From positions 19,189-83,188 of the forward strand of contig JBFJPL010000003.1 of NCBI GenBank assembly GCA_041617155.1: a DNA stretch of 64,000 bases, read 5' to 3'. A program made the position numbers and the translations under genes. Shown piece after piece: positions 3,570 through 32,050 of this stretch. The number at the start of each line of letters is the position of its first letter. Position 1 is the stretch's first letter. The notes beneath the pieces are model-generated. The model was not told the DNA's origin, searched no databases, and saw only the letters and a program-made list of their open reading frames with translations. Origin of the DNA: Kiloniellales bacterium. Lineage in GTDB: Bacteria > Pseudomonadota > Alphaproteobacteria > Kiloniellales > JAKSDN01.

Positions 3570-3628
3570 CGTCCCGTCTCCATACTGGAAGGGTTGCTAC
3601 GAACGGTCTTGTTCTTCGATGGCCTGGT

Positions 3629-3644
3629 TGCAATCGCTGTACCA
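3629..3644 (-). promoter_or_regulatory. sigma54-type -24/-12 promoter of flagellin 1
   Basis: The minus strand reads TGGTACAGCGATTGCA against consensus TGGCAC-N5-TTGCW, with correct GG-N10-GC spacing. It lies about 60 nt upstream of ATG 3569. Confidence 0.7.
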
Positions 3645-3719
3645 CAAGAAGTATGCAATTAAAACAGATAGTTAAAGATATCTGGTGAATTTCGTGGCGG
3701 TCATGCTTGCCGGTCGGGA

Positions 3720-3754
3720 GGCAGGCATTGCCGGGACCGATGGCAAAAGTTACC
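3720..3754. promoter_or_regulatory. Candidate enhancer (bEBP/FlbD-type) dyads upstream of the flagellin-1 sigma54 promoter
   Basis: GGCAGGCATTGCC (3720-3732) and GGCAAAAGTTACC (3742-3754) both follow the pattern GGCA-N5-T(G/A)CC. They lie 75-110 bp upstream of the promoter. Confidence 0.5.
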
Positions 3755-3778
3755 GGCGCCGCGGGGCGGCGCAGGGGC

Positions 3779-3807
3779 AAAAAAAGGGGGGCGCTTGCGC
3801 GCCCCCC
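3779..3807 (-). terminator. Rho-independent terminator after flagellin 2
   Basis: The minus strand reads GGGGGGCGC-GCAA-GCGCCCCCC followed by TTTTTTT, a perfect 9-bp GC stem. It lies 35 nt after the flagellin-2 stop and separates it from the flagellin-1 enhancer/promoter. Confidence 0.85.
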
Positions 3808-3841
3808 GAAAGGACCGATGGTCGGTGGGTCGTGCTGTCTC

Positions 3842-4663
3842 CTATCGGAACAGCGCCAACACCGACTGCTCGCTCTGGCCGGCGAAGGCCAGGGCGCTGA
3901 TGCCCAACTGCTGGCGAGTCTGCAATGCCACCAGGTTGGCGCCTTCCTCGGTGATGTCGGCCAAGGTCAGCTTGCCGGCGCCTTCCTCGAGAACGTTGAC
4001 GTAGTTCACGGTGAAGTCGAGGCGGGTCTGTAACAAGGCCACGTTCGAACCGATCTCCTGGCCCTCGCCTTCGAGGGTCTCGACCGCGGCATCGAGTTCC
4101 ACGATCGCCGCATCGATGTTCGAGGTGAGGCTGAAGTTCGCCGCCGAGGTGATGTCGAGGCCGGTCGTGTCGGTGGTCAGGTCGACCGAATCGATGGCCA
4201 GCTGGCTCGAGGTCAGGTTGCTGAACTCGACGGTCAGCGTCTCGCCGGTGCCGTTGACCAGGTTGAGGCCCTGGAAGGTGGCGTCGGCCGCCAGGTTGTC
4301 GATCTGGGTCAACAGCTCGTTGTACTGCGAGACCAGCGATGCCAGCTCGGTGCCGGTCGCCGATTTGGCGGCGATCGCCAGACCCTTGGCCTGACGGACG
4401 ACCGAGTCGATCGTCTCGACCGCCTCGAGGGCGGCGCTGACCGAAGAGATCGCCTGATCGATGCCGCTCTTCTTTTCGTCGAGCGCGCTGGCCCGGTCGC
4501 TGAGCGACTTGGCCTCGAAGAAGACACGCGCATCGTCGACCGGGCTCGCGATGCGCAGGCCGGACGACAGACGGTTGTTGGTGCGGTTGATCAGGTCGCT
4601 GGTGTTGCCCAGCGCGAGCACGCTGGCGCGTGCGGCTGCGGAAAGGGTGATTTCACTTGCCAT
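3842..4663 (-). CDS. fliC: Flagellin, paralog 2
   Basis: 273 aa, colinear with paralog 1 without indels. Same N and C termini (NRLSSGLRIASPVDDARVFFE ... ALAFAGQSEQSVLALFR). GGAG lies upstream of the ATG. Confidence 0.95.
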   Translation of the reverse strand: MASEITLSAAARASVLALGNTSDLINRTNNRLSSGLRIASPVDDARVFFEAKSLSDRASALDEKKSGIDQAISSVSAALEAVETIDSVVRQAKGLAIAAKSATGTELASLVSQYNELLTQIDNLAADATFQGLNLVNGTGETLTVEFSNLTSSQLAIDSVDLTTDTTGLDITSAANFSLTSNIDAAIVELDAAVETLEGEGQEIGSNVALLQTRLDFTVNYVNVLEEGAGKLTLADITEEGANLVALQTRQQLGISALAFAGQSEQSVLALFR

Positions 4664-4917: not shown

Positions 4918-5751
4918 TCAGGCGAAGAGGTTGAGCACCGAGCCCGGTTCGACTTCCCGGGGCAGGAGCGTGCTCTCGGCCAGCGAGTCGGTGAGCGCCT
5001 GGGCGGCTTCGAAGGCGAAGGATATATTGGTCAGGATCTGCGCGGTGCGGTCGCGCAGCGCCTGGATCTCGTCGATCTGCTTCTTGCGCTCGGCGATCTC
5101 GATGTCGTCGATCTTGAGCTTGGCCTGGTCCAGGCTGCGGTCCACGGTTTTGATCAGGTTGACCGACAGCGTGTTGTTGATTTCGATGATCGCGAGCGAT
5201 CCGTCGAGGTCGCTCCTGACGGCGTCGATCGCATCCTGCGCGGCCTGAACGTCCGCCGCCGAGGCGAAGTCGTTGGTGACGATGGCCTCGATCGCCGCCA
5301 GGCCGTCGGCCTTGGTCGCCGCCAGCCCGTCCGGCGCGCCCAAGCGGCCGGGGGTGGCGCTCAGCAGCTTGTCCAGCGACTGCAGCACCTCGGCCCGCTT
5401 GCTGTCGAACTCGGCCACGGTCGTGGGATCGGCTAGCGCGCGCAGCTCATCGAGCTGATTCTGCAGGTCCTTCACGGTCAGCCGGTTGGTCTTGACCGTG
5501 GCGCTATAGGCTTTGACCTCCTCGAGTTCGCGTTCCAGGCGGCTTGCCTTGACCCGCAGCAAGGCGGTCTTGCCCTGCCCGAAGTCGGACTCCTGGAATT
5601 CCGCGATCTTCGCATCGAGGCGGGCCAGCTCGACGTTCTGGGCGATGTTGAACTGCAGCTCGAAGTTCGGGCGCGCCGCCGCCTGCGCCAGCCGCACCAG
5701 GGAGGTGGCGATGCTGTTGACGATGGTGTTATTGGTCGGAAACGTCAGCAT
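4918..5751 (-). CDS. Hypothetical coiled-coil protein in the flagellin/hook-associated-protein operon (unknown function)
   Basis: 277 aa, Ala/Leu/Asp/Glu-rich heptad-like sequence with no TM or signal peptide. Sits between flgL (78 nt upstream) and the flagellin-2 control region. The C-terminus ...EPGSVLNLFA resembles the flagellin ends ...SVLALFR / AVLQLFR. I recognise no family. Confidence 0.7.
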   Translation of the reverse strand: MLTFPTNNTIVNSIATSLVRLAQAAARPNFELQFNIAQNVELARLDAKIAEFQESDFGQGKTALLRVKASRLERELEEVKAYSATVKTNRLTVKDLQNQLDELRALADPTTVAEFDSKRAEVLQSLDKLLSATPGRLGAPDGLAATKADGLAAIEAIVTNDFASAADVQAAQDAIDAVRSDLDGSLAIIEINNTLSVNLIKTVDRSLDQAKLKIDDIEIAERKKQIDEIQALRDRTAQILTNISFAFEAAQALTDSLAESTLLPREVEPGSVLNLFA

Positions 5752-5829
5752 GGTCGATCCAACAAATTAGAGCCCGGACCAGTTTACACCGATGCCCGTT
5801 AAGTTCGTCCTAATGGACTAGCTAAACGG

Positions 5830-11317: not shown

Positions 11318-11668
11318 TCAGACGACCCGGTCCAAGACCAGGCCTGAATCGTCGACTTCGCCATTGGCCGCGGCGACGATGCTGTCGATGTGCTTGACCA
11401 GTTCTTCCGGCGGGAAGCGCTGAACCACTTCACCGGATTCGGGGTCGACGATCTCGACGAAAACCCGGCTGAGCTCCTGGTCGTAGGTCAAGCGCGATCG
11501 CGAAGACTGCGCGGCCTGAAACGACCGGGCAGATCGCTCGGCGTTCTGGTTGGGCTCCACGCGCTCCTTGCGCACCACGGGCTCCGCGGGGCGGTTGGCG
11601 GCTGGGGCCGGTAGCCTCTGGCGAGGCGGTTCGGCGGACAGCGCTATATTTGTGATCGCGACCAACAT
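11318..11668 (-). CDS. flaG: FlaG-family flagellar protein
   Basis: 116 aa. The C-terminal motif LTYDQELSRVFVEIVDPESGEVVQRFPPEELV matches the FlaG signature (xYDxE...V.vvD..TGEvIRQiPpEe). Confidence 0.75.
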   Translation of the reverse strand: MLVAITNIALSAEPPRQRLPAPAANRPAEPVVRKERVEPNQNAERSARSFQAAQSSRSRLTYDQELSRVFVEIVDPESGEVVQRFPPEELVKHIDSIVAAANGEVDDSGLVLDRVV

Positions 11669-11807
11669 CAGGGTACAGTTTGCCTATTATCACTAATATA
11701 TAGCACATAGCATCATGATGCAAATGTATTAATAAAAACTTTACTGCACACTACTATTCCGATGCCTGGTTTCATCTGGGAAAGCCACACGAATCTGCGT
11801 TTTATGA

Positions 11808-11822
11808 TTAACGGATTGTTAA
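11808..11822. promoter_or_regulatory. CtrA-type box (TTAA-N7-TTAA) upstream of fliX
   Basis: TTAACGGATTGTTAA is a perfect match. It lies 61 nt upstream of the fliX ATG within a roughly 210-bp AT-rich divergent region. Confidence 0.6.
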
Positions 11823-11882
11823 CCCCGGCGCTCCCAGTCTGGTCGATGGATGCGAGCCATGAGCAGGTAGTGAGCAGCTAGA

Positions 11883-12296
11883 ATGAAGATCGATCCTCTT
11901 GCCAAACAGCGCCTGTCACCGACCCGGCGCAGCGAGCGCGCCAAGCAGCCGGAGGCGGGCGGTTTTGCCGAGGAACTGAGCGGCGAGGCCCCGGCCGGCG
12001 GCTCGGTCGGCGGCGCCACGGCGCCCAGTCCGGTCGACGGCCTGCTTGCCCTGCAGGAGGTGTCGGACGGCTTGGCGCGCCATGCCAAGGCGCGGCAGCG
12101 CGGCGAGGCCCTGCTCGAAGAGCTCGATAGACTGCGCCTGGATCTCCTGACCGGGACACTATCCAAGGCCCGGCTGGAGCATCTGGCGGCTTTGACGGCG
12201 GCGCAGCGGGAGCGGATCGATGATCCACACTTGGCGCAGATCATCGAGGAGATCGAGCTGCGGGCGGCGGTCGAACTGGCCAAACTCGACCACTAG
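11883..12296 (+). CDS. fliX: Class II flagellar assembly regulator FliX
   Basis: 137 aa. GLLALQEV...RQRGEALLEELDRLRLDLLTG...DPHLAQIIEEIELRAAVELAKL fits the FliX family pattern. It is divergent from the flgI-containing strand as in Caulobacter, with a perfect TTAA-N7-TTAA box 61 nt upstream. Confidence 0.7.
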   Translation: MKIDPLAKQRLSPTRRSERAKQPEAGGFAEELSGEAPAGGSVGGATAPSPVDGLLALQEVSDGLARHAKARQRGEALLEELDRLRLDLLTGTLSKARLEHLAALTAAQRERIDDPHLAQIIEEIELRAAVELAKLDH

Positions 12297-12372
12297 GGCG
12301 CGGAAACAACAACCGAACATTTTTTACCTGATATCAACGTCATGAAGTGACCATGACGATGCATTCTTGTGC

Positions 12373-12400
12373 TTGAAGGGTCGCGGGAAATTCATATACT
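12373..12400 (+). promoter_or_regulatory. Candidate sigma70-type promoter of dksA with a flanking inverted repeat
   Basis: TTGAAG-N16-TATACT. The -10 element is bracketed by the inverted repeat GTCGCGG...CCGCGAC (12380-12407). Confidence 0.35.
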
Positions 12401-12436
12401 CCGCGACAATCTGGAGGACTCAGGCAGGGGTGAGGC

Positions 12437-12859
12437 ATGGCGAATGGGACTAGGTTAGCGATCGGTTACCGTCCGTCCGACGATGAGCCGTTCATGAATT
12501 CCCGTATGAGGGATTATTTTCGGCAGAAACTGCTCGCCTGGAAGCAGGAACTGCTCGAGGAGTCGACCGAAACGCTCCAGCATCTCCAGGAAGGCGGTCT
12601 GGCCGAGCCGGATATCGCCGACCGGGCCTCGCTGGAGACCGACCGCTCGCTCGAACTGCGCACCCGAGACCGGGAGCGCAAGCTGATTGCCAAGATCGAG
12701 GACGCCCTGCGCCGGATCGACGAGGGCTCCTATGGCTATTGCGAGGAAACCGCCGAGCCGATCAGCCTGAGACGGCTCGAGGCGCGGCCCATCGCGACCC
12801 TCTCGATCGAGGCCCAGGAGCGTCACGAGCGCATGGAGCGCACCCACCGCGACGATTGA
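12437..12859 (+). CDS. dksA: RNA polymerase-binding transcription factor DksA (Cys-poor variant)
   Basis: 140 aa. It carries the coiled-coil tip motif PDIADRASLETDRSLELRTRDRERKLIAKIEDAL (DxxDxA) and YGYCEETAEPISLRRLEARPIATLSIEAQE. Only 1 of the 4 canonical zinc-finger Cys is present. Confidence 0.9.
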   Translation: MANGTRLAIGYRPSDDEPFMNSRMRDYFRQKLLAWKQELLEESTETLQHLQEGGLAEPDIADRASLETDRSLELRTRDRERKLIAKIEDALRRIDEGSYGYCEETAEPISLRRLEARPIATLSIEAQERHERMERTHRDD

Positions 12860-12918
12860 ACCCGCCCAAGGGGGAAAATCAAACCGCCGGAGCCCGTGGC
12901 CGCGATTCGGACAGGCTG

Positions 12919-13689
12919 CTAGAACGGCCAGAGAATATCGAAGATCTGCTGCCCGTAGCGCGGCTGCTGGAGATCGCTGATCTGGCCGCGTCCGCCGTAG
13001 GCGATGCGCGCCTCGGCGATCTGGTCGAACTGGATCGTGTTGGTCGAGGCGATGTCCTCGGGCCTGATGATGCCGGCCACCTGCAGCTCGCGCATTTCGA
13101 AGTTGACCCGCACCTCCTGGCGCCCGGCGACCACCAGATTGCCGTTGGGCAGCACCTGGATGACCAGGGCGGCGACGCTCAGATCGATGGCTTCGTCGCG
13201 CTGGATGCTGCCGACCCCTTGGGTGCTGCCGGAGCTGTCCAGGTCGATCAGGCTGGTCGGATCGATCGCGGTCGGCAGGATCTGGCTGAGACTAGCCTCG
13301 TAGCCGAGGATCGAGCTGGCCGAGGAGTCCTCCGCCGCGGTCCGGCTGCGGTTGGTCGTGTTGGAGATCGCGGCGCTGTCCTGGATCGAGATGTTGATGG
13401 TTACGATGTCGCCCACCGTGGCTGCGCGCTGGTCCTGCAGGAAATGTTGCGAGCCCGGCCGCCACAGCGAATTGGCCTGGTGCGTGACCAAGGCCGGTGC
13501 CGGCTGCGGTACCTGCACCGGCTGCCGGCCGATGATCCGCTGCGGGTTCTCGATGCCGCTCATCGGCGGCGGCCGGCCGATTTCGGCGATCCGCTGCAGC
13601 GCGTTGCAGGCGCTCAGGGACGCGGCGATCAGCAGGGTTCCGGCCAGGCGGAGCGGGCGGGCGAGGGAGGTGCGATGCTGCGGGGCCAA
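12919..13689 (-). CDS. flgH: Flagellar L-ring lipoprotein
   Basis: 256 aa with a lipobox (LLIAASLSAC). SLWRPGSQHFLQDQRAATVGDIVTINISI... is typical of FlgH. Confidence 0.9.
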   Translation of the reverse strand: MAPQHRTSLARPLRLAGTLLIAASLSACNALQRIAEIGRPPPMSGIENPQRIIGRQPVQVPQPAPALVTHQANSLWRPGSQHFLQDQRAATVGDIVTINISIQDSAAISNTTNRSRTAAEDSSASSILGYEASLSQILPTAIDPTSLIDLDSSGSTQGVGSIQRDEAIDLSVAALVIQVLPNGNLVVAGRQEVRVNFEMRELQVAGIIRPEDIASTNTIQFDQIAEARIAYGGRGQISDLQQPRYGQQIFDILWPF

Positions 13690-13700
13690 GGGAGCCTCCT

Positions 13701-14651
13701 TCAGTTGACGGTCGCGATGGTGGCGGGCAGCACCCGGACGGTACCGGCCCGCACCACCACGCCATTGATCACGGCATTTGACTTGGTGTTCATGACCCGG
13801 ATGACCTGACCGCTGGCACCGTCTTCCAGGGCACGGCCCTGGGCGGTCAGGACCATGCGGTCGGTTTCCAGCCGCAGGATCACCAGGCTCTTGCGGGGCA
13901 CCAGCACGGGTTCCCGCAGGTTGCCGGTGCGGATCGCTTCGCCGGCCCGGATCGGTCGGCGCGGGCTCTTGCCGATCAGACGCTGTGCGTCGAGCACCAC
14001 GTTGCCTGCCAGACGATCGCTGCGTTGGCGCAGCCAGTCGACATCCGCGTGGCTGATGATCTCACCCGGCAAGGCGCGCCGGCGCAGCACCGGAACCTCG
14101 GTCATCTGGACCGCACGACCGGTGACCGTGCCGCGGGCCAGGGGCGCCGCGCCGGCTGGTGCCTGGAGATGGGCCATGAAGCGGCCGCTGGCCGGGTCGT
14201 GGGCGAGGCTGGTCAGGGCCAGGGTCGGCTCGGCGTCGACCGGCAACTCCAGGTGCAGCGTCGGGTTGTCCAGAACCAGCGAGACGTCACCGCTGACGCC
14301 GCGCTCGGCCAAGGCCGCCTGCAGCGCGGCTTTGATGTGCGCGGCGCCGATGACATGGCTGGCGCGGGTCACCACGACACTGTCGAGCGCCGAGGCGGGT
14401 CGCCAGTCGATACCGTAGCCGCTGGCCACGGCGGCGAGCCAGCGGGCGTCCAGCTCTACTCGGCGGCCCGGGGCGGGCGCGCGCGCGACCGCGGTGTCGG
14501 CAGCATCCGTCAGCCCCTCGAACAGGTCGCCCAGGCGCAGGATCGCGCCGTCGATGACGACCGACTTCTTGAGCAGGACCGGCGTCTGGCCGGCCTGGGC
14601 GGGCAGGGCGAGCAGGAGGCCGAAAATCAGGGCCAGGCAGCGGGTTCTCAT
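13701..14651 (-). CDS. flgA: Flagellar P-ring assembly chaperone FlgA
   Basis: 316 aa with a signal peptide. The C-terminal SAF-like region is GEAIRTGNLREPVLVPRKSLVILRLETDRMVLTAQGRALEDGASGQVIRVMNTKSNAVINGVV. Located between flgG and flgH. Confidence 0.8.
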   Translation of the reverse strand: MRTRCLALIFGLLLALPAQAGQTPVLLKKSVVIDGAILRLGDLFEGLTDAADTAVARAPAPGRRVELDARWLAAVASGYGIDWRPASALDSVVVTRASHVIGAAHIKAALQAALAERGVSGDVSLVLDNPTLHLELPVDAEPTLALTSLAHDPASGRFMAHLQAPAGAAPLARGTVTGRAVQMTEVPVLRRRALPGEIISHADVDWLRQRSDRLAGNVVLDAQRLIGKSPRRPIRAGEAIRTGNLREPVLVPRKSLVILRLETDRMVLTAQGRALEDGASGQVIRVMNTKSNAVINGVVVRAGTVRVLPATIATVN

Positions 14652-16383: not shown

Positions 16384-16428
16384 GCAGGCCGCTTCGAGGC
16401 CGCTGCCGGACGCAGTCTCAACCAGATG

Positions 16429-16436
16429 TTAACCAC
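16429..16436. promoter_or_regulatory. CtrA-type half site (TTAACCAC) upstream of fliL
   Basis: It matches the TTAACCAT 8-mer in 7 of 8 positions and lies 57 nt upstream of the fliL ATG. The same 9-mer TTAACCACG occurs at 4809-4817. Confidence 0.4.
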
Positions 16437-16492: not shown

Positions 16493-17035
16493 ATGTCGGA
16501 TCAAGCGGCGACCGAAGACATTGGCGGCGGCATGGACGCCGAGTCGAAGCCCGACGCGGGCGGGACGAACGGCAAGTCGATTGTGCTTTTCGTCGTGCTG
16601 CCGATCCTTTTGCTGTTCGGCGCGGTGCTCGGCGCCTACTTCATGGGCATGCTCGACCCGCTCCTGGGCGTACCGCCCAAACAGCCGAAGGCCGAGCAGG
16701 CCGCGGCACCCATGCCCGAGGTGAACCAGTCGGCGGTGTTCTACGATCTGCCGGAAATGCTGGTGAACCTCAACGCCGGCGGACGCAAGGCCTCCTACCT
16801 GAAGATTTCGGTCAGCCTGGAGCTGCAAAGCGAGGCCGCCATGGAGCAGGTCAAGCAGGTGCTGCCGCGCGTCATCGACAACTTCCAGGTCTATCTGCGC
16901 GAGCTGCGGATCGAGGATCTGCGCGGCTCGGCCGGCCTGCAGCGCCTGCGCGAAGAGCTGCTGCTGCGCGTCAACGCCGCGGTCCGGCCGGTCGTGGTCA
17001 AGGACGTGCTGTTCAAGGAAATGCTCGTCCAATAG
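16493..17035 (+). CDS. fliL: Flagellar basal-body-associated protein FliL
   Basis: 180 aa with a single TM. AVFYDLPEMLVNLNAGGRKASYLKISVSLEL...VLFKEMLVQ is typical of FliL. Confidence 0.9.
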   Translation: MSDQAATEDIGGGMDAESKPDAGGTNGKSIVLFVVLPILLLFGAVLGAYFMGMLDPLLGVPPKQPKAEQAAAPMPEVNQSAVFYDLPEMLVNLNAGGRKASYLKISVSLELQSEAAMEQVKQVLPRVIDNFQVYLRELRIEDLRGSAGLQRLREELLLRVNAAVRPVVVKDVLFKEMLVQ

Positions 17036-17078: not shown

Positions 17079-18080
17079 ATGGCTGAACCAGAGGCGGCGA
17101 CGGACAAAGACGCCGGTGGCTCGACCAAGATCCTCAACCAGGCCGAGATCGACAGCCTGCTCGGCGGCCACGACGGCCTGGACGCGCGTTCGGGTATCGC
17201 GGCGATCGTCGATTCGGCGCTCGTCTCCTACGAGCGCCTGCCCATGCTCGAGGTCGTATTCGACCGCCTCGTGCGCATGATGTCGACCTCGCTGCGCAAC
17301 TTCACGTCCGACAACGTCGAGGTCCACCTGGAGTCGATCTCCTCCTCGCGCTTCGGCGACTACCTCGATTCGATTCCTCTGCCCGCCATGCTGACGGTGT
17401 TCAAGGCGGAGGAATGGGACAACTTCGGCCTCATGGCGGTCGACTCCTCGCTGATCTATTCGATTGTCGACGTTCTGTTGGGCGGCCGGCGCGGCTCCGC
17501 CGCCGTACGCATGGAAGGCCGGCCCTACACCACGATCGAGCGCAACCTGGTCGAGCGCATGGTGCACGTCGTCCTGGCCGACCTATCGGCCGCTTTCGAC
17601 CCCTTGTCGCCGGTCACCTTCCGTTTCGAGCGGCTGGAATCCAACCCGCGCTTTGCCACCATTGCTCGGCCGGCCAACGCCACCGTCGTCGCCCAGCTGC
17701 GGGTCGAGATGGAGGATCGTGGCGGCCGCTTCGAGCTGATGCTGCCCTACGCCACCCTGGAGCCGGTCCGCGAGCTCTTGCTGCAGATGTTCATCGGCGA
17801 GAAGTTCGGCCATGACTCCATTTGGGAAAGCCATCTGACCACCGAGCTGTGGCAGACCGAGCTGCCGATCCAGGCGGTGCTCGACGAAGTCGAGGTGCAC
17901 TTGGGCGAAGTCATCGGCTGGACCGAAGGCAGCCGCCTCGAACTCAACTGCGGCCCGAATTCGAAGGTCGAGCTGCGGTGCGGCGACATCGCCATGTTCG
18001 AGGGCCAAATGGGACGAAAGGGATCGAACATCGCAGTGCGGGTCGCCGGCAAGCTGACCGGCAACGGGGAGTCCACCTGA
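17079..18080 (+). CDS. fliM: Flagellar motor switch protein FliM
   Basis: 333 aa. It has the N-terminal CheY-P-binding-type motif ILNQAEIDSLLG and central FliM core similarity (LEVVFDRLVRMMSTSLRNF...). Confidence 0.9.
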   Translation: MAEPEAATDKDAGGSTKILNQAEIDSLLGGHDGLDARSGIAAIVDSALVSYERLPMLEVVFDRLVRMMSTSLRNFTSDNVEVHLESISSSRFGDYLDSIPLPAMLTVFKAEEWDNFGLMAVDSSLIYSIVDVLLGGRRGSAAVRMEGRPYTTIERNLVERMVHVVLADLSAAFDPLSPVTFRFERLESNPRFATIARPANATVVAQLRVEMEDRGGRFELMLPYATLEPVRELLLQMFIGEKFGHDSIWESHLTTELWQTELPIQAVLDEVEVHLGEVIGWTEGSRLELNCGPNSKVELRCGDIAMFEGQMGRKGSNIAVRVAGKLTGNGEST

Positions 18081-18592
18081 TGGATCTGTTGCCGTTCGAA
18101 CACTGGAGCCTATTGGCCGACGCGGTTCTCGCGGTCCTCCTGGTCGCGACCATCGCCTATGCCGCGATACTCGAGCGCAAGCTCTCGGGCCTGCGCGCCG
18201 CGAAGCAGGAAATGGCGGAGCTGGTCGGCCGCTTCACCGAGGCGACCAAGCGCGCGGAGAACGGCTTGGCCGAGATCAGGCAGACCGCGGAGGAAACCGG
18301 CCGAACCCTGCAGCAGGCCCTGGAGAAGGGCAACAGCTTGGCCGACGACCTGGTTTTTCTGGTTGAACGCGGCGATGCCGTTGCCGGCCGGCTCGAGCGG
18401 GGCGCCGCAAAGGGCCGTGGCCGAGCGACCGCCGAGCCACCGCCGGCCGGCCCACGGTCGGTCGCCAAAGGCCCCGGGGGAACCGCTGCAAAGGCGCCCG
18501 CTCCGGCGGCCGCCGAGGACGACGCCACATCGAGCCGCAAGCGCACGCCGGAGCAGTCCGCTCTGATGGCGGCCCTGCGGGCCATGCGCTAG
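18080..18592 (+). CDS. Hypothetical membrane-anchored coiled-coil protein with an Ala/Pro-rich tail (flagellar cluster, unknown function)
   Basis: 170 aa from ATG 18080, which overlaps the fliM stop (TGATG). It has an N-terminal TM (WSLLADAVLAVLLVATIAYAAIL), then a helical segment and a low-complexity tail. The 86 codons upstream of it in track ORF 17822..18592 overlap fliM out of frame. Confidence 0.7.
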   Translation: MDLLPFEHWSLLADAVLAVLLVATIAYAAILERKLSGLRAAKQEMAELVGRFTEATKRAENGLAEIRQTAEETGRTLQQALEKGNSLADDLVFLVERGDAVAGRLERGAAKGRGRATAEPPPAGPRSVAKGPGGTAAKAPAPAAAEDDATSSRKRTPEQSALMAALRAMR

Positions 18593-18610
18593 GAGCCCGA
18601 GGAAGCGGAC

Positions 18611-19252
18611 ATGAAGCTACGCCTTCTGCCTTTGCTGATCTTTGCGGCCGGCACCGGAGTCCTGTTCCACCTGGGCGATTTGTGGCGGGGCTTCGGCCCC
18701 TTGGCCCAGGTCGCGGCGGCGGAGGGCGAAGCGAAGCCCGCCAAGGCGGCGAAAGCCGGCGCTCGCTACGAGCCAGCCGGGCCGAAAACGGCCGGCGAGA
18801 TGTCGCCTCGGACCGCCACCTTGGCCAGCGACCCCTTCAATCTGACCGATGAAGAGATCGACCTGCTGCAGAAACTGGCCGAGCGCCGGTCAGAACTCGA
18901 GAGCCGTGCGGCGGAGTTGGAACAGCGCCGTACTCTCTTGGAAGCGGCCGAGCGCCGCATCGACGAGAAGATCGGCGAGCTGGAGGCGATCCGGAAAAAC
19001 ATCGAGGGCCTGCTGGTGCGCCACGACGAGCAGGAAGAGGCGCAACTCAACAGCCTGGTCAAGATCTACGAGAGCATGAAACCCAAGGATGCCGCGCGGA
19101 TTTTCGAAGAGCTCGACATGGTGGTGCTGCTCGATGTGATCGAGCGCATGAAGGAACGCAAGACCGCGCCGATCCTGGCCAAGATGAACCCGCGGCGCGC
19201 CAAGGCGATCACCTTGGAGCTGGCTCAGCGCCGCGGCCTGCCGGGCTCCTAG
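18611..19252 (+). CDS. MotE/FlbB-like protein (MgtE-N-like helical domain; putative periplasmic stator chaperone)
   Basis: 213 aa with a signal/TM segment, a coiled coil (EIDLLQKLAERRSELESRAAELEQRRTLLEAAERRIDEKIGELEAIRKNIE), then LVKIYESMKPKDAARIFEELDMVVLLDVIERMKERKTAPILAKMNPRRAKAIT. This pattern matches COG3334/MotE-type proteins. Confidence 0.55.
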   Translation: MKLRLLPLLIFAAGTGVLFHLGDLWRGFGPLAQVAAAEGEAKPAKAAKAGARYEPAGPKTAGEMSPRTATLASDPFNLTDEEIDLLQKLAERRSELESRAAELEQRRTLLEAAERRIDEKIGELEAIRKNIEGLLVRHDEQEEAQLNSLVKIYESMKPKDAARIFEELDMVVLLDVIERMKERKTAPILAKMNPRRAKAITLELAQRRGLPGS

Positions 19253-19257
19253 TCCGG

Positions 19258-19947
19258 ATGGAGCGCGCCGGGCAAACCTCACCGGCCGAGCGTGGCGACC
19301 CGAACATCGTCGCCTTGCTCGGGCTCAAACTGCTGCTTTTGGGGTTTTTCATTCTGTTGAACGCGCTGTCCCACTATGAGGAGGACCGGACTCGACGGGT
19401 TCTGCAAAGCGTCGACCAGGCCTTCAACGGCCGCATCGAAGCCTTGAAAAGCGAGGCTGAACATTCCGCTGCCCTGGGGCCGCTGAACGGAACCGAGGCG
19501 ATGATCGACTCGGTGGGGGCGCTCTTTACTTCGCTGATACCGGCGGTTGAGCGAGAGCTATCGGCCGCCGGCACGCGCCTGCGCCTGGAGCTGCCGGTCG
19601 CTGCCCTGTTCCGACAGGACAGCGTCGCCCTGCAGTCGGGTCGCGGCGTGCTGATGAAACGCTTCGCCGAAGCCTTGACCCAAAACGGCCGCGGCCGACT
19701 CAACTATGAGGTCGAGCTCTTGCACGGCATAAGGCGCGAGGCGATCTCGGACCTGACCGAAGCCGGCGCCGACTCGCTGGAAGTTCGGCGCATCGCCGCC
19801 CTGGTCCTTGCCCTGACCAAACGCGGCGTGCCCGCGGACAAGCTGTCCGTCGGCGTCATCCCCGGCCGGCCCGGCAAGGTCCAGATGGTGGTGCAAACCT
19901 ACCAGCGGGCGGGCCCGGCATTCGACTACGGGGAGCTGGCGCGATGA
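19258..19947 (+). CDS. Degenerate MotB/OmpA-like paralog (single TM, no conserved plug-region Asp)
   Basis: 229 aa. The TM segment IVALLGLKLLLLGFFILLNALS aligns with the MotB-like AWMLTFTDLVALMLTFFVMLFAMS of the next gene but has K where that has D. The C-terminal LRLELPVAALFRQDSVALQSGRGVL...SLEVRRIAALVLALTKRGVPADKLSV parallels the OmpA-like VLIALPGDLLFAPGSTELATTGRQAL...ELSLARALRVAQVLRDSGY. The GHxD motif is replaced by LLHG. Confidence 0.6.
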   Translation: MERAGQTSPAERGDPNIVALLGLKLLLLGFFILLNALSHYEEDRTRRVLQSVDQAFNGRIEALKSEAEHSAALGPLNGTEAMIDSVGALFTSLIPAVERELSAAGTRLRLELPVAALFRQDSVALQSGRGVLMKRFAEALTQNGRGRLNYEVELLHGIRREAISDLTEAGADSLEVRRIAALVLALTKRGVPADKLSVGVIPGRPGKVQMVVQTYQRAGPAFDYGELAR

Positions 19948-20735
19948 CGGAGCCAGGGAGTGTCGAAGCGGACGGCGCCGAACCGGGGGCCGCCAATCGC
20001 GCTTGGTGGCTCGCGCTATCGAACCATGCAGCGGCCGCGCAGCGTGAAGCGCCTTTGGCGCGCGGCTCTGCCTGGATGCTCACCTTTACCGACCTGGTCG
20101 CCCTGATGCTGACCTTCTTCGTCATGCTCTTCGCCATGTCCAAGGTGGAAAAGCGCGAATGGGAGAACCTGACCGACGCTCTGGCGCCGAAGCTGAACGT
20201 CGTGAGCAAGCTGTCCATCGCCCTGCCGACAGAGTCGCGCGATGTCGACGCGGTCGAGACCTTGCCGTCGGTCGATTTGAACTATCTGGCGGCCTTGTTG
20301 AAACAGGACATGGCCGATGATCCCCTGCTCGGCCTGGGCATCCTGCGCCGCTTGGAGCGGCGTGTCCTGATCGCGCTGCCGGGCGATCTGCTCTTTGCGC
20401 CCGGATCGACCGAGCTCGCCACGACCGGGCGGCAAGCCTTGACCGGCTTCGTCGGCCTGCTGCGCCACGTGAACAACCGGATCGAAGTCATGGGCCACGC
20501 CGATCCGCGCCAACCGATTGCCGGCTTTGCCTCCAATTGGGAACTCTCCCTGGCGCGGGCCCTGCGGGTCGCCCAGGTGTTGCGCGATTCCGGGTACCGG
20601 GGCCAGGTGGTCGCACGCGGCTTCGGCCATTCACGCTTCGAGTCGCTTTCGCCGCGGCTCCGGCCGGCGCAGCGCTTGACCTTGGGACGCCGGGTCGAAC
20701 TGGTGATACACGACGACGCCGGAGAAGCACGCTGA
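19944..20735 (+). CDS. motB: MotB-like flagellar stator protein (OmpA-family C-terminal domain)
   Basis: 263 aa. It has the MotB N-terminal signature (WMLTFTDLVALMLTFFVMLFAMS) and an OmpA-like domain (LFAPGSTELATTGRQALTGFVGLLRHVNNRIEVMGHADPRQ...NWELSLARALRVAQVL). ATGA start/stop overlaps occur on both sides. Confidence 0.8.
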   Translation: MTEPGSVEADGAEPGAANRAWWLALSNHAAAAQREAPLARGSAWMLTFTDLVALMLTFFVMLFAMSKVEKREWENLTDALAPKLNVVSKLSIALPTESRDVDAVETLPSVDLNYLAALLKQDMADDPLLGLGILRRLERRVLIALPGDLLFAPGSTELATTGRQALTGFVGLLRHVNNRIEVMGHADPRQPIAGFASNWELSLARALRVAQVLRDSGYRGQVVARGFGHSRFESLSPRLRPAQRLTLGRRVELVIHDDAGEAR

Positions 20736-23700
20736 TGGCTCGGCGGCAGGCAAAGATCGCCGCGCTTCTCGGCGGGTTTCTGGTCGCGGCGCTGCCGGTC
20801 CCGGCGGCCGTGGCCGAACCGCCGGACCAAACGGCGCCCGCGCTCAACCTGCGCAGCGGCGAACACGAAGGTTTCAGCCGCCTGGTGTTCGATTGGGATG
20901 CGCCGGTGACCTACAGCATCGAGGAGACGCCGAGCGGTGCCACGGTGTCTTTCGACCGGCCGGCCCGACTCGACCTGAAGAGCTACCGAAAAGATCCCTC
21001 GCCGGGCATTCTGGACCTCACCTTGGGCCCAGGCGACGACGGCCTCACGGTTGCCCTGCGGTTGCCCGAGGGCGCCAACCTGCGCCATTTTCTCAGCGGC
21101 CCCAAGGTGGTCATCGACGTGCTCGCCCCGGGCGCCGGCGCGGCCGAAGCGCAGGCCGATCAGGAAAGCGCCGCCGCCGGGGCGGCGCCCGAATCGCTCG
21201 GCAATTCCATCCTGAGCGATGCCGTGGAAGCCGCCGTGGCCCTGACCGGTGACACGCGGGCGAACCGCGCCGGCACCCGCCCGACCCGGCTCGGCGTTGC
21301 ACCCAAGGCCGCCGAACCGAAAGCGCCGCCGCGCCGCGCCGCGCCGCGTCCGGCGACCTCAAGCAAGGCATCGAGACGAAAACTGGTCGTCACCTACGAG
21401 CGGCCGCCCCTGCCGGCGGCAATGCCGGTGCCCGGTATGACGGCGCCGCGCTACCGCCCTCTGGCGATCCGCCTGAAGGGCATCGCCGGCGTAGCCGCCG
21501 CCGCCTTTCGCCGTGGCCAGCACCTATGGCTGGTGTTCGATTTGCCGGCCCGGGTCAACATCGCCAGGCAGATTCAGCGGATCGCGCCAGAACTGGCGCC
21601 GGTGTTGCAGCTCGAGCGACCAGACATCGTGGCCCTGCGCTTGACTGTGCCGCTGGGTGTGGCGCCGAAGCTGCGGCGCGACGGCACCGACTGGCTGGTC
21701 GACCTGCGGCCGCGCCTGATCCGGCCGGAAAAGCCGGCGACCCTCGACCTTCGCGCCGGCCATGACGGCCCTCGGCTTGTCTTTCCGGTTACCGGCGCGG
21801 GCCGGCTGATCCAGCTGGACGACCCGGATATGGGCGACCGGGTTCACGTGCTGCCGGTTTCGCTTGCCGATTTCGGCCTGGCAACGGCCCGCGATTTCCC
21901 ACAGTTCCAGGCGCTCGCCACCTATCAAGGACTGGCCATCGTGCCGCGGTCCGACAGGCTGTGGATCACGCTCGACAAGGACGCCTTGAAGATCACCTCG
22001 TCGGCCGGCCTTCTGGTCACCGCGGGATTGGACACCGACGCCGAGCCGAACGAGGAGGAGACGGTCGCGGGCAAGCGACGGCTGTTCGACCTGGCGGCCT
22101 GGCGCGAGGTCGACGGCGACGACTTCGAAACCAATCGAAAACTGCTGCAGCGCGCGATTATCGCGCCGGGCGACGCCCGGAGTCTCGATCTCGCGCGGCT
22201 CCGGCTGGCACGATTCTTTTTCGCCCATGGCTTGGCCACCGAGACCTTGTCGGTGATCAGGCTGATGGCGCGTGAGCGCGGGCGTTTCGCCGCCGATCCG
22301 GAGATGATCCTGCTCGAGGGCGCCGCTGCTTTCCTGGCGCAGGACTTTCACGCCGCAGCGGCCAGCCTTTCCCACCCGGCCCTGGAGGGCGAGGCCGAGG
22401 CCGTGATCTGGCGCGCCGCCATGTCGGCGGCGGCCCAGGACTGGCCCTATGCCGCGGAGCTGTTCGAGCAAGGCAAGGCGACGATCCAGGACTACCCGCG
22501 CGCGGTGCGCGTCCGGCTGCATCTCTTGGCGGCCGAGGCGCGCCTGGCGATCGGCGACACCGGCGGCGCCAGCTTCTACCTGAAACAGGCGCTTGAGGCT
22601 CAATCGACCGATTTCGAGCGGGCCCAGATCGATTTCCTCGAAGGCCGGCGCCTGCTGGCAGACCAGCGTCCGGAGCGCGCGCTGCCCCTGTGGCGGCGTG
22701 TCGCCGCCTCGACGCACCGGCCGTCCCAGGCAAGGGCGCGCCTGGCCCTGGTCAACCAAGGCCTGAAAGCGGGCACGCTCGAACCGGCCTCCGCGATCGC
22801 CGAACTGGAGCGTCTGCGCTTTGTCTGGCGGGGCGACGAGTTCGAGGCGGCGCTGCTTGAACGCCTGGGCCGGCTCTACGCCGACGCGGGCGACTACCGG
22901 GATGCCCTGGTCGCCCTGCGTCAGGCGGCTTCCCACTTCCCCGGTTCGGTCCGCGCCGAAGCGGCGGCGCGCCATATGCGCAAGCTCTTCGCCTCGCTTT
23001 ACCTGGGCGACAAGCGCGCGAGCCTGTCGCCGCTGGCGGCCTTGGCGCTATACCGCGAGTTCGAGGAACTGACGCCTGCCGCGCAGGACGGCAACCGCCT
23101 GATCGACAACCTGGTCGACCGGCTGGTCGAGATCGATCTTCTGGGCCAGGCGGCGGAACTGCTGGAAGACCAGATCGCCCGCCGCCTGGCCGGCGAAAAG
23201 CGGGCGCGGGCCGGCGCGCGTCTGGCGCTGGTCCGGCTGCTCGACCGCCAGCCTGGGCACGCGCTCGAGGCGCTGAACTCGAGCGCCGCCAAGAAACTGC
23301 CCAGCGCCGTCGAGCGCCGGCGCCGCCACCTCAGGGCGCGCGCGCTTGCCGGGCTGCACCGCGGGCGCGACGGGCTGGCCGTGCTGGCCGGCGACGAGAG
23401 CGAGGATGCACGCAAGCTGCGCGCGGAGATCCTGTGGCAGCTGCGCGACTGGCCGGCGGCGGCCGTCGCGCTGGCCCGGCTGATCCCGAGAGATCCGCCC
23501 AAGGAGCGAGCGCTCGATGCCGTCGAAACCCAGACCGTGATCGACCTGGCGACCGCCTATACCCTGGCAGGCGACCGCCGGGCGCTCGACGATCTGGCGC
23601 GGCGCTTCGGCAAGGCCATGGCCGAGAGCGGCAAGGCCGACAGCTTTACCCTGCTGACCAGCGACTTCGGCAAGGCCAACTTGGCCGCGGTGGCCGACGA

Positions 23701-23785
23701 GCTGGCCGGGGTCGAACGGATCCAAGCCTTCATCGCGAGCTATCGCGCGCGGGTCCGCAAGGACGGCCTCAGCAACCTGAACTAG
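20735..23785 (+). CDS. Large secreted AMIN-like plus TPR-repeat protein (flagellar cluster, unknown function)
   Basis: 1016 aa from ATG 20735, which overlaps the motB stop (TGATG). It has a signal peptide (AALLGGFLVAALPVPAAVA), an AMIN-like segment (LNLRSGEHEGFSRLVFDWDAPVTYSIEETPSGATVSFDRPARLDL...VVIDV), an Ala/Pro-rich linker, and a long C-terminal helical-repeat region rich in A/L/R. The track ORF start 20537 is an out-of-frame overlap with motB. Confidence 0.75.
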   Translation: MARRQAKIAALLGGFLVAALPVPAAVAEPPDQTAPALNLRSGEHEGFSRLVFDWDAPVTYSIEETPSGATVSFDRPARLDLKSYRKDPSPGILDLTLGPGDDGLTVALRLPEGANLRHFLSGPKVVIDVLAPGAGAAEAQADQESAAAGAAPESLGNSILSDAVEAAVALTGDTRANRAGTRPTRLGVAPKAAEPKAPPRRAAPRPATSSKASRRKLVVTYERPPLPAAMPVPGMTAPRYRPLAIRLKGIAGVAAAAFRRGQHLWLVFDLPARVNIARQIQRIAPELAPVLQLERPDIVALRLTVPLGVAPKLRRDGTDWLVDLRPRLIRPEKPATLDLRAGHDGPRLVFPVTGAGRLIQLDDPDMGDRVHVLPVSLADFGLATARDFPQFQALATYQGLAIVPRSDRLWITLDKDALKITSSAGLLVTAGLDTDAEPNEEETVAGKRRLFDLAAWREVDGDDFETNRKLLQRAIIAPGDARSLDLARLRLARFFFAHGLATETLSVIRLMARERGRFAADPEMILLEGAAAFLAQDFHAAAASLSHPALEGEAEAVIWRAAMSAAAQDWPYAAELFEQGKATIQDYPRAVRVRLHLLAAEARLAIGDTGGASFYLKQALEAQSTDFERAQIDFLEGRRLLADQRPERALPLWRRVAASTHRPSQARARLALVNQGLKAGTLEPASAIAELERLRFVWRGDEFEAALLERLGRLYADAGDYRDALVALRQAASHFPGSVRAEAAARHMRKLFASLYLGDKRASLSPLAALALYREFEELTPAAQDGNRLIDNLVDRLVEIDLLGQAAELLEDQIARRLAGEKRARAGARLALVRLLDRQPGHALEALNSSAAKKLPSAVERRRRHLRARALAGLHRGRDGLAVLAGDESEDARKLRAEILWQLRDWPAAAVALARLIPRDPPKERALDAVETQTVIDLATAYTLAGDRRALDDLARRFGKAMAESGKADSFTLLTSDFGKANLAAVADELAGVERIQAFIASYRARVRKDGLSNLN

Positions 23786-24865: not shown

Positions 24866-25141
24866 TCAGGGCTGATTCTCTGGCTGCCCGCCGGCCTGGT
24901 TCAGCAGTTCGAGGACGGCGGCGGCCAGGCGGTCGAGCGCGTCGCGCAGATCCCACAGCTTGGGCGCCAGTGCCACGGCCTGCTCCCGCGGCTGGTTTTC
25001 GAGGTTCGTGCAGATATCTCGGACCCGCTGGCCGAAGCCGGACAGCTCCACCAGGCGGCCGGCGCTGATCTCGGCGTGGGCCGCGGCAACCGCCTGGCCG
25101 AGCCGGTCGATCTCCGCCGCGATCGCGGTGGTGGGGGTCAC
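24866..25141 (-). CDS. Hypothetical small helical protein (flagellar export operon)
   Basis: 91 aa. The GTG start overlaps the stop of the upstream FlhB-C-like gene (GTGA). It sits 9 nt upstream of fliO. I recognise no family. Confidence 0.55.
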   Translation of the reverse strand: MTPTTAIAAEIDRLGQAVAAAHAEISAGRLVELSGFGQRVRDICTNLENQPREQAVALAPKLWDLRDALDRLAAAVLELLNQAGGQPENQP

Positions 25142-25479
25142 GGCGCGGCCTCGCCGGCGGCGGCCTGAGAGGCGCGATAGACGTAGGTCAGGATCTCGGC
25201 CACGGCGGCCAAGGCGGGCAGCGGCACTTCGCTGTCGATCTCCACCGCCGCCAGAATCTCCGCCAGATCGGCGTCGGTCCGCACCTTGACGCCCCGGTCG
25301 AAGGCGATCGCGAGTATCTGCTCGGCCAGGCGGCCTTGCCCCTTGGCGACGACGCGCGGCCCCTGGGCGGCGCCGGGGTCCTGCTGCAGGGCGATGGCCA
25401 GCGGACGGGGCCCGCCGGAATCTGGTGTCGAAGAGATCGGCTTGTCGGCCACGGCTGGCACCCGGTCCTCGGCTGTCAT
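25138..25479 (-). CDS. Stand-alone FlhB C-terminal-domain-like protein (EscU/YscU/FlhB-CC family, COG2257-like)
   Basis: 113 aa. PLAIALQQDPGAAQGPRVVAKGQGRLAEQILAIAFDRGVKVRTDADLAEILAAVEIDSEVPLPALAAVAEILTYVYRA aligns with the post-NPTH part of the bona fide FlhB in this window (HFAVALAYELGSAGAPKVTAKGADTLALRMRELAEEYAVPVVENPPLARALYGSVELDQEIPPEHYKAVAEIIGYVMRL). Confidence 0.8.
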   Translation of the reverse strand: MTAEDRVPAVADKPISSTPDSGGPRPLAIALQQDPGAAQGPRVVAKGQGRLAEQILAIAFDRGVKVRTDADLAEILAAVEIDSEVPLPALAAVAEILTYVYRASQAAAGEAAP

Positions 25480-25609: not shown

Positions 25610-25846
25610 TCAGTCGGTCGGTTTCTTGCCCTTCTCCTGCTCGGTCACCTGACCTGCCTGCTGGGTCGCGGCGGCCGCCCGGTTTTCGGCCTGTATGCGC
25701 TCGTGGATCTCGCGACGCAGCACGGTGGCGGTCGGCGGAAAGGTAAAGCCCAGTTTGATCGACTTGCCCCGAATGTCGATGACGGTGACTTCGATGTCGT
25801 CGTTTATGATGACTGACTCGCCGATCTTGCGTGTCAGATAGAGCAT
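25610..25846 (-). CDS. csrA: Carbon storage regulator / translational repressor CsrA homolog with a C-terminal extension
   Basis: 78 aa from ATG 25846. MLYLTRKIGESVIINDDIEVTVIDIRGKSIKLGFTFPPTATVLRREIHERI matches the CsrA fold sequence (MLILTRKxGESIxIGDDIxVTVLxIxGxQVRLGIxAP). The 22 upstream codons of the track ORF are not CsrA-like. Confidence 0.85.
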   Translation of the reverse strand: MLYLTRKIGESVIINDDIEVTVIDIRGKSIKLGFTFPPTATVLRREIHERIQAENRAAAATQQAGQVTEQEKGKKPTD

Positions 25847-25912
25847 GAGCTGCTTGCGCCTTTTCCAATTCGGCGGCGCCCCACGGCGCAACCCCCAGCA
25901 TTTATCATGCAA

Positions 25913-25927
25913 TTAAATCACTTTTTA
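25913..25927. promoter_or_regulatory. CtrA-like box (TTAA-N7-TTTA) in the csrA / flgB divergent region
   Basis: TTAAATCACTTTTTA followed by CGG, the same TTAA-N7-TTTACGG arrangement as at 25542. It lies about 95 nt upstream of the flgB ATG. Confidence 0.4.
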
Positions 25928-26019
25928 CGGATCATTAATAGGCCGCGCGTGATAGTGCGCTGGGTCGGTCTGTCGGCACCGACCGATCGAAGCTCGAAAG
26001 ATCGGCCCCGGGAGACCCC

Positions 26020-29566: not shown

Positions 29567-32050
<2,484 letters not shown>

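Follow-up and report, generated by a model that had tools for sequence, protein, structure and literature searches.

A probable stator-placement operon with an Asp-less MotB paralogue, downstream of fliL and fliM in a Kiloniellales bacterium

The question raised by this stretch of Kiloniellales DNA (the window, 64,000 nucleotides (nt) in all) is what the five co-directional open reading frames (ORF1 to ORF5) at 18080-23785 on the + strand, downstream of the flagellar genes fliL and fliM, contribute to the flagellar motor, and whether such a set of genes belongs to a system that has already been described. We computed gene content, homologies, protein folds and conservation of gene order, and we are fairly confident that the region is the distal part of a fliL-led operon, fliL-fliM-pflI-motE-motB'-motB-motK-like, of a Rhodospirillales/Kiloniellales-type alphaproteobacterium, and that it encodes parts that place or activate the stators around the rotor. 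Four of the five genes match PflI, MotE, MotB and MotK/FssB/PflA by domain, fold, order and operon position, all of which were described between 2004 and 2026. The same module is already known from Rhodobacterales and Caulobacterales; what is specific to this lineage is that cheY-cheZ and/or ORF3-motB have been inserted. The sole member of the block without a described counterpart is ORF3, a MotB paralogue that has lost the proton-site Asp.

Gene order and operon structure

The original prediction had described five ORFs joined by overlapping or very short junctions, and all of its coordinates match (Table 1). Between fliL and fliM there is a gap of 43 nt, the TGA stop of fliM (18078-18080) overlaps the ATG of ORF1 at 18080 (TGATG), ORF2 follows after an 18-nt gap with AGGAG upstream of it and ORF3 after a further 5-nt gap, while ORF3 and ORF4 share an ATGA overlap (19944-19947) and ORF4 and ORF5 a TGATG overlap (20733-20737). 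Overlapping and abutting junctions of this kind are ordinary in operons. Independent gene calls on six public contigs with the identical locus give the same products of 170, 213, 229, 263 and 1016 amino acids (aa), and the GC content at third codon positions (GC3) is 0.81-0.85 across all five ORFs. Longer starts at TTG 17822 for ORF1 and TTG 20537 for ORF5 were rejected, as the six gene calls, the lengths of the homologues and the signal peptide favour ATG 18080 and ATG 20735.

Terminator-like signals inside the block number six against 5.9 expected, none of them above chance. The divergent intergenic region of flgF and fliL contains a CtrA-box-like site (TCAACCAGATGTTAA, TTAA-N7-TTAA with one mismatch), which is a candidate promoter control element of the fliL operon, and the corresponding fliL2 operon of Cereibacter sphaeroides is CtrA-dependent (PMC10954123). 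Given the junctions, the lack of an internal terminator above chance and the CtrA-box-like site upstream of fliL, the best reading of the five ORFs is that they make up the distal part of a single fliL-led operon. The overlaps are conserved among related loci, where ORF3 shares 1 or 4 nt with motB in 34 of 54 and the motB stop overlaps the start of the ORF5 homologue in 47 of 59, counts that take the start codon nearest the upstream stop and thus are biased toward short gaps.

To collect the related loci, GTDB was scanned with a MotE alignment, each species being represented by one genome, and this gave 584 tblastn-confirmed relatives. The best 80 of these 584 loci, all from alphaproteobacteria and mostly from Rhodospirillales sensu lato, were annotated with family hidden Markov models, and five loci fetched earlier (L007-L011) brought the number to 85. 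MotE and the MotK-like gene are both present in 74 of the 85, and in 55 of these 74 the ORF3-motB pair lies between them; at one locus (L013) ORF3 also lies between them and the motB ORF is sorted after the overlapping MotK frame. The genes found between MotE and the MotK-like gene are cheY-cheZ-ORF3-motB at 37 loci, cheY-cheZ only at 10, cheZ-ORF3-motB at 7, cheY-ORF3-motB at 5, ORF3-motB as in the window at 5, nothing at 4 and other variants at 6. The recurrent order is fliL-fliM-pflI-motE-(cheY-cheZ)-ORF3-motB-motK-like, often with fliP next on the opposite strand, and it is seen in Kiloniella, Pelagibius, Azospirillum, Thalassospiraceae, Magnetovibrio and Thalassobaculum. The trio pflI-motE-MotK-like without ORF3 and motB occurs in Magnetospirillum, Afipia, Dongia and Stellaceae, and the core trio is present also in Methylocystaceae. 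The block thus passes the refutation test that the original prediction had set, since in related genomes it is conserved with flagellar genes.

Some further observations concern these loci. Most Rhodospirillales relatives carry the cheY-cheZ pair in the operon between motE and the MotB-like pair and the lineage of the window is without it; a CheZ-type phosphatase inside a stator-scaffold operon is itself unusual. Four loci from some Azospirillum and Rhodospirillaceae (L082, L083, L091 and L040) have fliL-fliM-pflI-motE with no ORF3, motB or MotK-like gene detected within 10 kb downstream, and may represent a second flagellar system with a different set of partners. At locus L011 there is a DDE transposase between flgG and flgF (3193-4551), and its MotK-like gene (11515-14595) was called as two ORFs of 389 and 621 aa, possibly due to a frameshift or an assembly error.

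No MotA is encoded in the window, just as the original prediction had it. A hydropathy scan of all 56 plausible window genes found no MotA-like ORF (about 290 aa with four transmembrane (TM) helices), and the best tblastn match of E. coli MotA to the window has an expectation value (E) of 0.49. The multi-TM proteins of the window are FliP, FliQ, FliR, FlhB, ATP-binding cassette permeases, a resistance-nodulation-division pump, MreD/RodA-like proteins and proteins of phospholipid synthesis. The prediction had also treated the missing motA as a distinguishing feature of the block, and there it fails. No candidate ORF for fliF, fliG, flhA or flgE is found among the annotated window ORFs, and the absence of motA is therefore not special. 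Unlinked motA and motB are normal for alphaproteobacteria, since the C. sphaeroides operon holds motA2 and does not have motB2 among its listed genes (PMC10954123), and since none of the five related loci annotated with Pfam has a MotA/ExbB-family gene within 10 kb. A MotA-independent system was considered and rejected, as the window is without other core flagellar genes and split motA/motB loci are documented.

Counterparts of ORF1, ORF2, ORF4 and ORF5

The original prediction had recognised in the five products a coiled-coil protein that is anchored by a TM segment and ends in an Ala/Pro tail, a protein like MotE/FlbB, two MotB-like proteins, the first degenerate and the second bona fide in look, and a secreted protein with AMIN and tetratricopeptide repeat (TPR) parts, and these descriptions were accurate. 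ORF1 is classed as PflI-like from its membership of DUF6468 (PF20072; E 1.4e-21, 76.8 bits against a cut-off of 26.9), its synteny and its features, when set beside the descriptions of PflI in PMC3792480 and PMC10954123. It has an N-terminal TM helix (about residues 9-30) and the DUF6468 coiled coil, its C-terminal tail is rich in Ala and Pro, and its homologue is placed between fliM and motE in 81 related loci.

ORF2 is assigned by sequence to the MotE/FlbB/FlgY family (COG3334). It matches MgtE_N (PF03448) at residues 147-201 (E 3.4e-6, 27.9 bits against a cut-off of 25.9), has a coiled-coil-type match at 82-132 and a hydrophobic N-terminal anchor or signal, and its best NCBIfam match is collar_FlbB, the spirochaete collar protein (E 4.8e-9, below the cut-off). 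The family is now regarded as a building block of the periplasmic E-ring (PMC13023049), and by analogy with the published homologues ORF2 would form a ring around the MS-ring that is needed for stator function (PMC13023049, PMC10954123).

ORF5 is predicted to be Sec-secreted and periplasmic. Its signal peptide, read by eye, spans about residues 1-26 and shows a hydrophobic core behind a positive n-region, then an AxA site, with the cut between AVA and EP (MARRQAKIAALLGGFLVAALPVPAAVA followed by EPP). The AlphaFold model (AF2; mean predicted local distance difference test (pLDDT) 85.9, predicted template modelling score 0.70) has an eight-strand beta domain, possibly AMIN-like, at 36-130 (pLDDT >88), a disordered Ala/Pro linker at 131-215, further beta domains at 218-425 and an all-helical TPR-like superhelix at 440-1010 (pLDDT >90). 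Among 350,542 PDB chains, the top Foldseek match of the model is 9hmf_K from the periplasmic motor scaffold of Campylobacter jejuni (E 2.4e-10 over 882 columns), followed by generic eukaryotic TPR proteins. As modelled, the architecture would be that reported for MotK, FssB/CC_2058 and PflA. MotK of C. sphaeroides is secreted, has an N-terminal AMIN-like domain and a TPR-like body, is needed for rotation and binds MotE and MotB2 (PMC10954123), FssB/CC_2058 of Caulobacter is likewise secreted and contains TPRs, and without it the flagellum is paralysed (PMC7885107), and PflA combines a periplasmic beta-sandwich/AMIN part with TPRs (PMC11870540, PMC13023049). A gene of the ORF5 type is found at the same operon position in 74 related loci, and the homologues are publicly annotated as 'hypothetical protein' or 'tetratricopeptide repeat protein'. 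The Pfam matches of ORF5 itself to TPR and AMIN-like are weak, and this composition stands out better in the family, where AMIN-like is matched in 5 of 20 members (best E 1.3e-7) and AMIN in 2 of 20. The profile of the ORF5 family gives TPR profile matches with E 1e-7 and a weak match to the N-terminal region of PilQ (E 1e-3).

ORF4 is, judged from its sequence, a true MotB. It matches MotB_plug (PF13677; E 4.5e-14, 52.2 bits against a cut-off of 24) and OmpA (PF00691; E 3.8e-11, 43.6 bits against a cut-off of 27.2), and its OmpA-like domain has the peptidoglycan-binding motif GHAD...NWELSLARA. The TM motif FTDL carries the proton-site Asp, with ...WMLTFTDLVALMLTFFVMLF... aligning to ...YADFMTAMMAFFLVMWL... 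of E. coli MotB, and this Asp is kept in 60 of 60 members of the ORF4 family from related loci.

Several results weigh against these assignments. The best NCBIfam matches of ORF4 are to MotD, MotS and MotB models, all under the equivalog cut-offs (85.7 against 283 bits); these cut-offs are far from reached, and ORF4 is therefore placed in a divergent MotB subfamily. The AMIN-like Pfam match of ORF5 in the window (PF24837) is faint (E 0.038). The sequence identity of ORF5 to 9hmf_K is about 10%, and that chain is a candidate PflA by its length of 773 residues. A profile search with 20 diverse ORF5 homologues found neither MotK of C. sphaeroides (Q3IY86) nor FssB of Caulobacter (Q9A6M9); this search pre-filters by shared words, and it returned only the same Rhodospirillales/Hyphomicrobiales family and no protein from Rhodobacterales or Caulobacterales.

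The low equivalog scores of ORF4, together with its matches to TssL/DotU OmpA-domain models and the fact that in Magnetospirillum, Afipia, Dongia and Stellaceae this operon has no ORF3-motB pair, could also mean that ORF3 and ORF4 are the B subunits of an alternative stator, or of a non-flagellar motor of the MotAB/TolQR/ExbBD type that is hitch-hiking in the operon, and that the real flagellar MotB is encoded beside motA elsewhere. We consider this improbable, given that MotB_plug is matched above threshold in ORF4 and its Asp is invariant, that the ORF4 stop overlaps the MotK-like start in those 47 of 59 loci and MotK is a proven partner of MotB2 (PMC10954123), and that a split of motA and motB between loci is normal in alphaproteobacteria.

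The closest described arrangement is the Fla2 operon of C. sphaeroides, fliL2-pflI-motE-motA2-motK (Velez-Gonzalez et al. 2024, PMC10954123). As the block here appears to be, it is fliL-led and probably CtrA-controlled, and it has pflI, motE, a stator gene and a gene for a large Sec-secreted AMIN-like/TPR-like protein. In C. sphaeroides both MotE and MotK are periplasmic, are needed for rotation and not for assembly, and bind each other and MotB2, and the motE and motK mutants are Mot- (PMC10954123). The window differs in having fliM between fliL and pflI, in that the stator gene of the operon is motB instead of motA, and in the extra Asp-less ORF3 that precedes motB. ORF5 has 1016 aa with additional beta domains whereas MotK has 652 aa, and ORF2, unlike C. 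sphaeroides MotE, has an N-terminal hydrophobic anchor and no obvious cleavage site. The locus of Caulobacter crescentus, fliL-fliM-pflI-CC_2059-fssB(CC_2058) (PMC3792480, PMC7885107, PMC13023049), has the same order, with a MotE-like gene and then a gene for a large secreted TPR protein. Mutation of fssB leaves the flagella in place but paralysed, CC_2059 has a TM anchor as ORF2 does and has been put forward as the E-ring protein, and the assignment of CC_2059 and CC_2058 goes with the E-ring/spoke model (PMC13023049, PMC11870540). According to the published descriptions, it differs from the window in having neither a stator gene nor an ORF3 homologue.

More distant systems share parts of this set. 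Campylobacter and Helicobacter have an MgtE_N-type protein, FlgY, in the E-ring, and a periplasmic stator scaffold of beta-sandwich/AMIN and TPR parts in the PflA spokes, with PflB (PMC11870540, PMC12054838; PDB 9hmf), but the genes are not in the same operon arrangement, and in the window neither a TM-TPR protein like PflB nor genes for a cage or a basal disk were seen. E-rings of MotE/FlbB/FlgY with the TPR partners MotK, MotC, PflA and FlcB have been reviewed (PMC13023049), and both the FlbB collar base with FlcA/FlcB of Borrelia and MotE-MotC of Sinorhizobium join a protein of the MotE family to a periplasmic partner rich in TPRs that is needed for the recruitment or function of stators (PMC13023049). 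The differences are that ORF2 scores below the FlbB cut-off, and that in Sinorhizobium meliloti motE lies between flgI and flgH and MotC is without an AMIN domain.

The original prediction held that the combination could not be assigned to a described system. This does not stand, since the series PflI, MotE, a stator gene and MotK after fliL has been published (PMC10954123). That public annotation has no gene names for the block and that a full-text literature search for DUF6468 gave no paper would agree with a previously undescribed stator-associated system, but four of the five genes correspond to PflI, MotE, MotB and MotK/FssB/PflA (PMC10954123, PMC7885107, PMC13023049, PMC11870540). Literature and synteny largely refute that idea, which we regard as very improbable.

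The same prediction had suggested that the block serves an alphaproteobacterial motor as a scaffold in the periplasm or as an apparatus that recruits stators, and this appears right when viewed through the published homologues, from which E-ring and spoke formation, contacts among MotE, MotK and MotB and a paralysed phenotype would be expected here as well. ORF1 would be bitopic in the inner membrane, with its coiled coil in the cytoplasm and a tail rich in Pro, and would act at the site of flagellar assembly. ORF2, anchored in or secreted across the inner membrane, would oligomerise into an E-ring around the MS-ring, and the secreted ORF5 would bind MotE and the periplasmic part of MotB with its TPR superhelix. 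If its AMIN-like domain contacts peptidoglycan, the resulting spokes could hold the stator units and favour their open, ion-conducting state, and in this way recruit or activate MotA5MotB2 stators, of which ORF4 would be the MotB subunit and MotA be encoded elsewhere.

The MotB look-alike ORF3

ORF3 scores below the Pfam threshold for MotB_plug (E 0.0045, 17 bits), and has a TM helix with the LxFFILL motif of MotB, then a helix resembling the plug, and a fold of the OmpA-like kind. An hhalign comparison of the ORF3 family with the adjacent MotB family gives 98.6% probability (E 1.1e-15) over 192 columns that take in the TM helix, the plug and the periplasmic domain. The AF2 model (pLDDT 70) has Foldseek matches to MotB-C/OmpA-like domains with E 1e-7 to 1e-5, and those to MotB-C of H. 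pylori and Salmonella lie at 3e-7 to 2e-6. Because of this alignment and the matches of the model, ORF3 is read as a full-length, ancient paralogue of MotB. In the window a Gly takes the place of the Asp, and among 139 ORF3 cluster representatives the residue is Ser in 98, Gly in 20, Ala in 15, Cys in 3, Pro in 2 and Glu in 1, and never Asp. We therefore class ORF3 as a MotB-like paralogue and not as a MotB. The peptidoglycan motif is also missing, as the GHxD and N..LS (NxxLSxxRA) positions are unconserved and only an Arg, R178, is invariant.

The family is large, with 1072 clusters (50% identity) at E<=1e-10 among 1.84 billion representatives, and all named members, including those of Azospirillum oryzae and Niveispirillum, are called hypothetical protein. 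A literature search on Azospirillum motB/fliL gave no description of the family, and tblastn of ORF3 against the PLSDB plasmids gave no match. At every locus whose contig covers the site, ORF3 adjoins motB. The loss of the catalytic Asp and of the peptidoglycan-binding residues could be taken as the decay of a functionless motB duplicate, but the members have a uniform length of about 220-240 aa across the 1072 clusters, 15 columns are invariant among 28 sequences, the gene is intact and coupled to motB in 54 loci across several families, and its GC3 of 0.81 is what expressed genes typically show here. Decay is thus scarcely credible.

What then does ORF3 do? We infer its role without precedent. 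Since Ser, Gly or Ala replaces the Asp, ORF3 should no longer carry protons, and with both the Asp and the peptidoglycan-binding motif lost, we argue that it would be neither ion-conducting nor, probably, anchored to the wall, and may dock to the MotE/MotK scaffold instead. The most conserved part of the protein is its TM helix, with a mean column entropy of 1.15 bits against 2.29 for the OmpA-like domain, a pattern that MotB shares. This constrained MotB-type helix and the plug lead us to argue that ORF3 still sits inside the MotA pentamer. It would most likely be inserted there as the partner of MotB or as a unit that does not conduct, and in doing so would modulate or anchor the stator. One specific form of this is a MotA5-MotB-MotB' stator, in which ORF3 pairs with MotB and leaves a single proton-accepting Asp and a single peptidoglycan-binding domain, and is itself specialised for docking to MotE/MotK. 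We put this forward only tentatively, as a rather unlikely proposal. Adjacent paralogous single-TM subunits of the B type, presumed to share one pentamer of the A type, are known from Myxococcus AglR-AglQ-AglS and from tandem exbD1-exbD2 loci, and set a precedent for mixing two B subunits; in those systems both paralogues, as far as is known, keep the TM Asp, whereas ORF3 never does.

The chief competing explanation is that ORF3 works outside the MotA pentamer, as a free-standing bitopic adaptor of the inner membrane whose degenerate OmpA-like domain binds proteins and links MotB, MotE and the MotK-like spoke. Vibrio MotY, with its OmpA-like C-terminal domain, offers an analogy. Such an adaptor would agree with the loss of the peptidoglycan-binding motif from a retained fold, and with the position of ORF3 within a scaffold operon, tightly coupled to motB and through motB to the MotK-like gene. 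It would agree also with a mirror-tree analysis (pairwise distance correlation over 42 loci, run raw and controlled for FliL and FliM), where the distances of ORF3 correlate with those of MotK (r 0.89) as well as with those of MotB (r 0.84). All five proteins co-vary similarly and no ORF3-MotB pair is singled out, which counts against our reading of ORF3, and the analysis neither separates the two readings nor picks out the partner of ORF3. A plain anchor would, however, not need the strongly conserved TM helix, the LxFFILL motif or the plug-like helix, and we consider the adaptor a possibility to be taken seriously, if not a probable one.

The surrounding cluster and the meaning for the motor

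The region is part of a large flagellar cluster in an alphaproteobacterial genome with a GC content of about 66%, and the same locus, identical, is found on contigs of the metagenome-assembled genome GCA_041606315.1 and in several Logan assemblies. The genes flgB, flgC, flgF, flgG, fliE, fliP, fliQ, fliR, flhB and flgL were assigned by ORF size, order and annotated related loci.

Table 1. Features of the window discussed in the text, with positions in the window
Feature	Position	Strand	Remarks
fliL	16493-17035	+	first operon gene; Pfam FliL E 8.3e-21
fliM	17079-18080	+	Pfam FliM E 5.8e-64, and FliMN_C
ORF1	18080-18592	+	PflI-like, 170 aa
ORF2	18611-19252	+	MotE/FlbB/FlgY-family, candidate E-ring protein, 213 aa
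ORF3	19258-19947	+	Asp-less MotB paralogue, 229 aa
ORF4	19944-20735	+	MotB, 263 aa
ORF5	20735-23785	+	MotK/FssB/PflA-like, predicted periplasmic protein, 1016 aa; last gene of the block
CtrA-box-like site	16418-16432	+	flgF/fliL divergent intergenic region
Other CtrA-box-like sites	5799-5813, 11808-11822, 25902-25938 and more
flgF, flgG, flgA, flgH; dksA-type gene, fliX; flaG-like gene, flgI	upstream of fliL	-
Weak FlgN-like ORF, flgK, probable flgL; two flagellin genes; TPR/GT41 glycosyltransferase	upstream of fliL	-
fliP, fliO	downstream of ORF5	-	opposite strand to ORF5
FlhB-C-terminal-like gene, csrA, flgB, flgC, fliE, fliQ, fliR, flhB, CckA-like kinase	downstream of ORF5
Truncated ORF	2-718		no Pfam match
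TPR/GT41 protein	715-2706	-	663 aa
Flagellin paralogue	2748-3569	-
Flagellin paralogue	3842-4663	-
277-aa ORF	4918-5751		no Pfam match
Unassigned 91-aa ORF	24866-25141	-
FlhB-C-terminal-like protein	25138-25479	-	TIGR00789 flhB_rel E 2e-15; small
csrA	25610-25912	-	E 1.2e-19
CckA-like hybrid histidine kinase	29567-32050	+	directly after flhB
Orphan Flg_bbr_C protein	54373-54771	+	132 aa

CtrA-box-like sites (TTAA-N7-TTAA with at most one mismatch) number 11 in the window against 0.82 expected, and since they are mostly intergenic in the flagellar cluster, they suggest CtrA control of the cluster as a whole. A perfect site separates the flaG-like gene from fliX, and three that overlap one another lie between csrA, itself within the flagellar cluster, and flgB.

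Beside the two flagellin paralogues is a 663-aa protein with N-terminal TPRs and a glycosyltransferase family 41 (GT41) domain (E 1e-24), which by its sequence is a candidate flagellin glycosyltransferase. The CckA-like kinase matches the Brucella-type CckA model of NCBIfam with E 4e-228 and 759 bits, under the cut-off of 1000 bits, and a similar kinase follows flhB in an Afipia locus (L008, 19021-21573). About 22 kb away from the flagellar cluster, amid unrelated genes, an orphan protein matches the flagellar rod C-terminal domain Flg_bbr_C (E 9e-6).

The PflI-MotE-MotK module of E-ring and spokes has so far been studied in Cereibacter, Caulobacter and Sinorhizobium, and it is standard in Rhodospirillales too, in one operon with motB. 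The E-ring/spoke model, which emerged in 2024-2026, is thereby extended, and genes that hundreds of genomes list as hypothetical can be named. The PflI, MotE, MotB and MotK/PflA-like genes after fliLM are known. What is new is the conserved Asp-less MotB look-alike, found coupled to motB in Azospirillum and related bacteria, which might form a natural stator with a single Asp, hold a place without conducting, or act as an adaptor of the scaffold. Current models of MotA5MotB2 have two equivalent Asp residues that are used alternately. If MotA5-MotB-MotB' is real, a large clade of Rhodospirillales, Azospirillum among them, would have a stator that is asymmetric by nature, and this would bear directly on whether the rotary cycle needs both MotB Asp residues. 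The same ORF3-motB gene pair is present in Azospirillum brasilense (locus L071, with the ORF3 frame at 12335-13081), which is genetically tractable.

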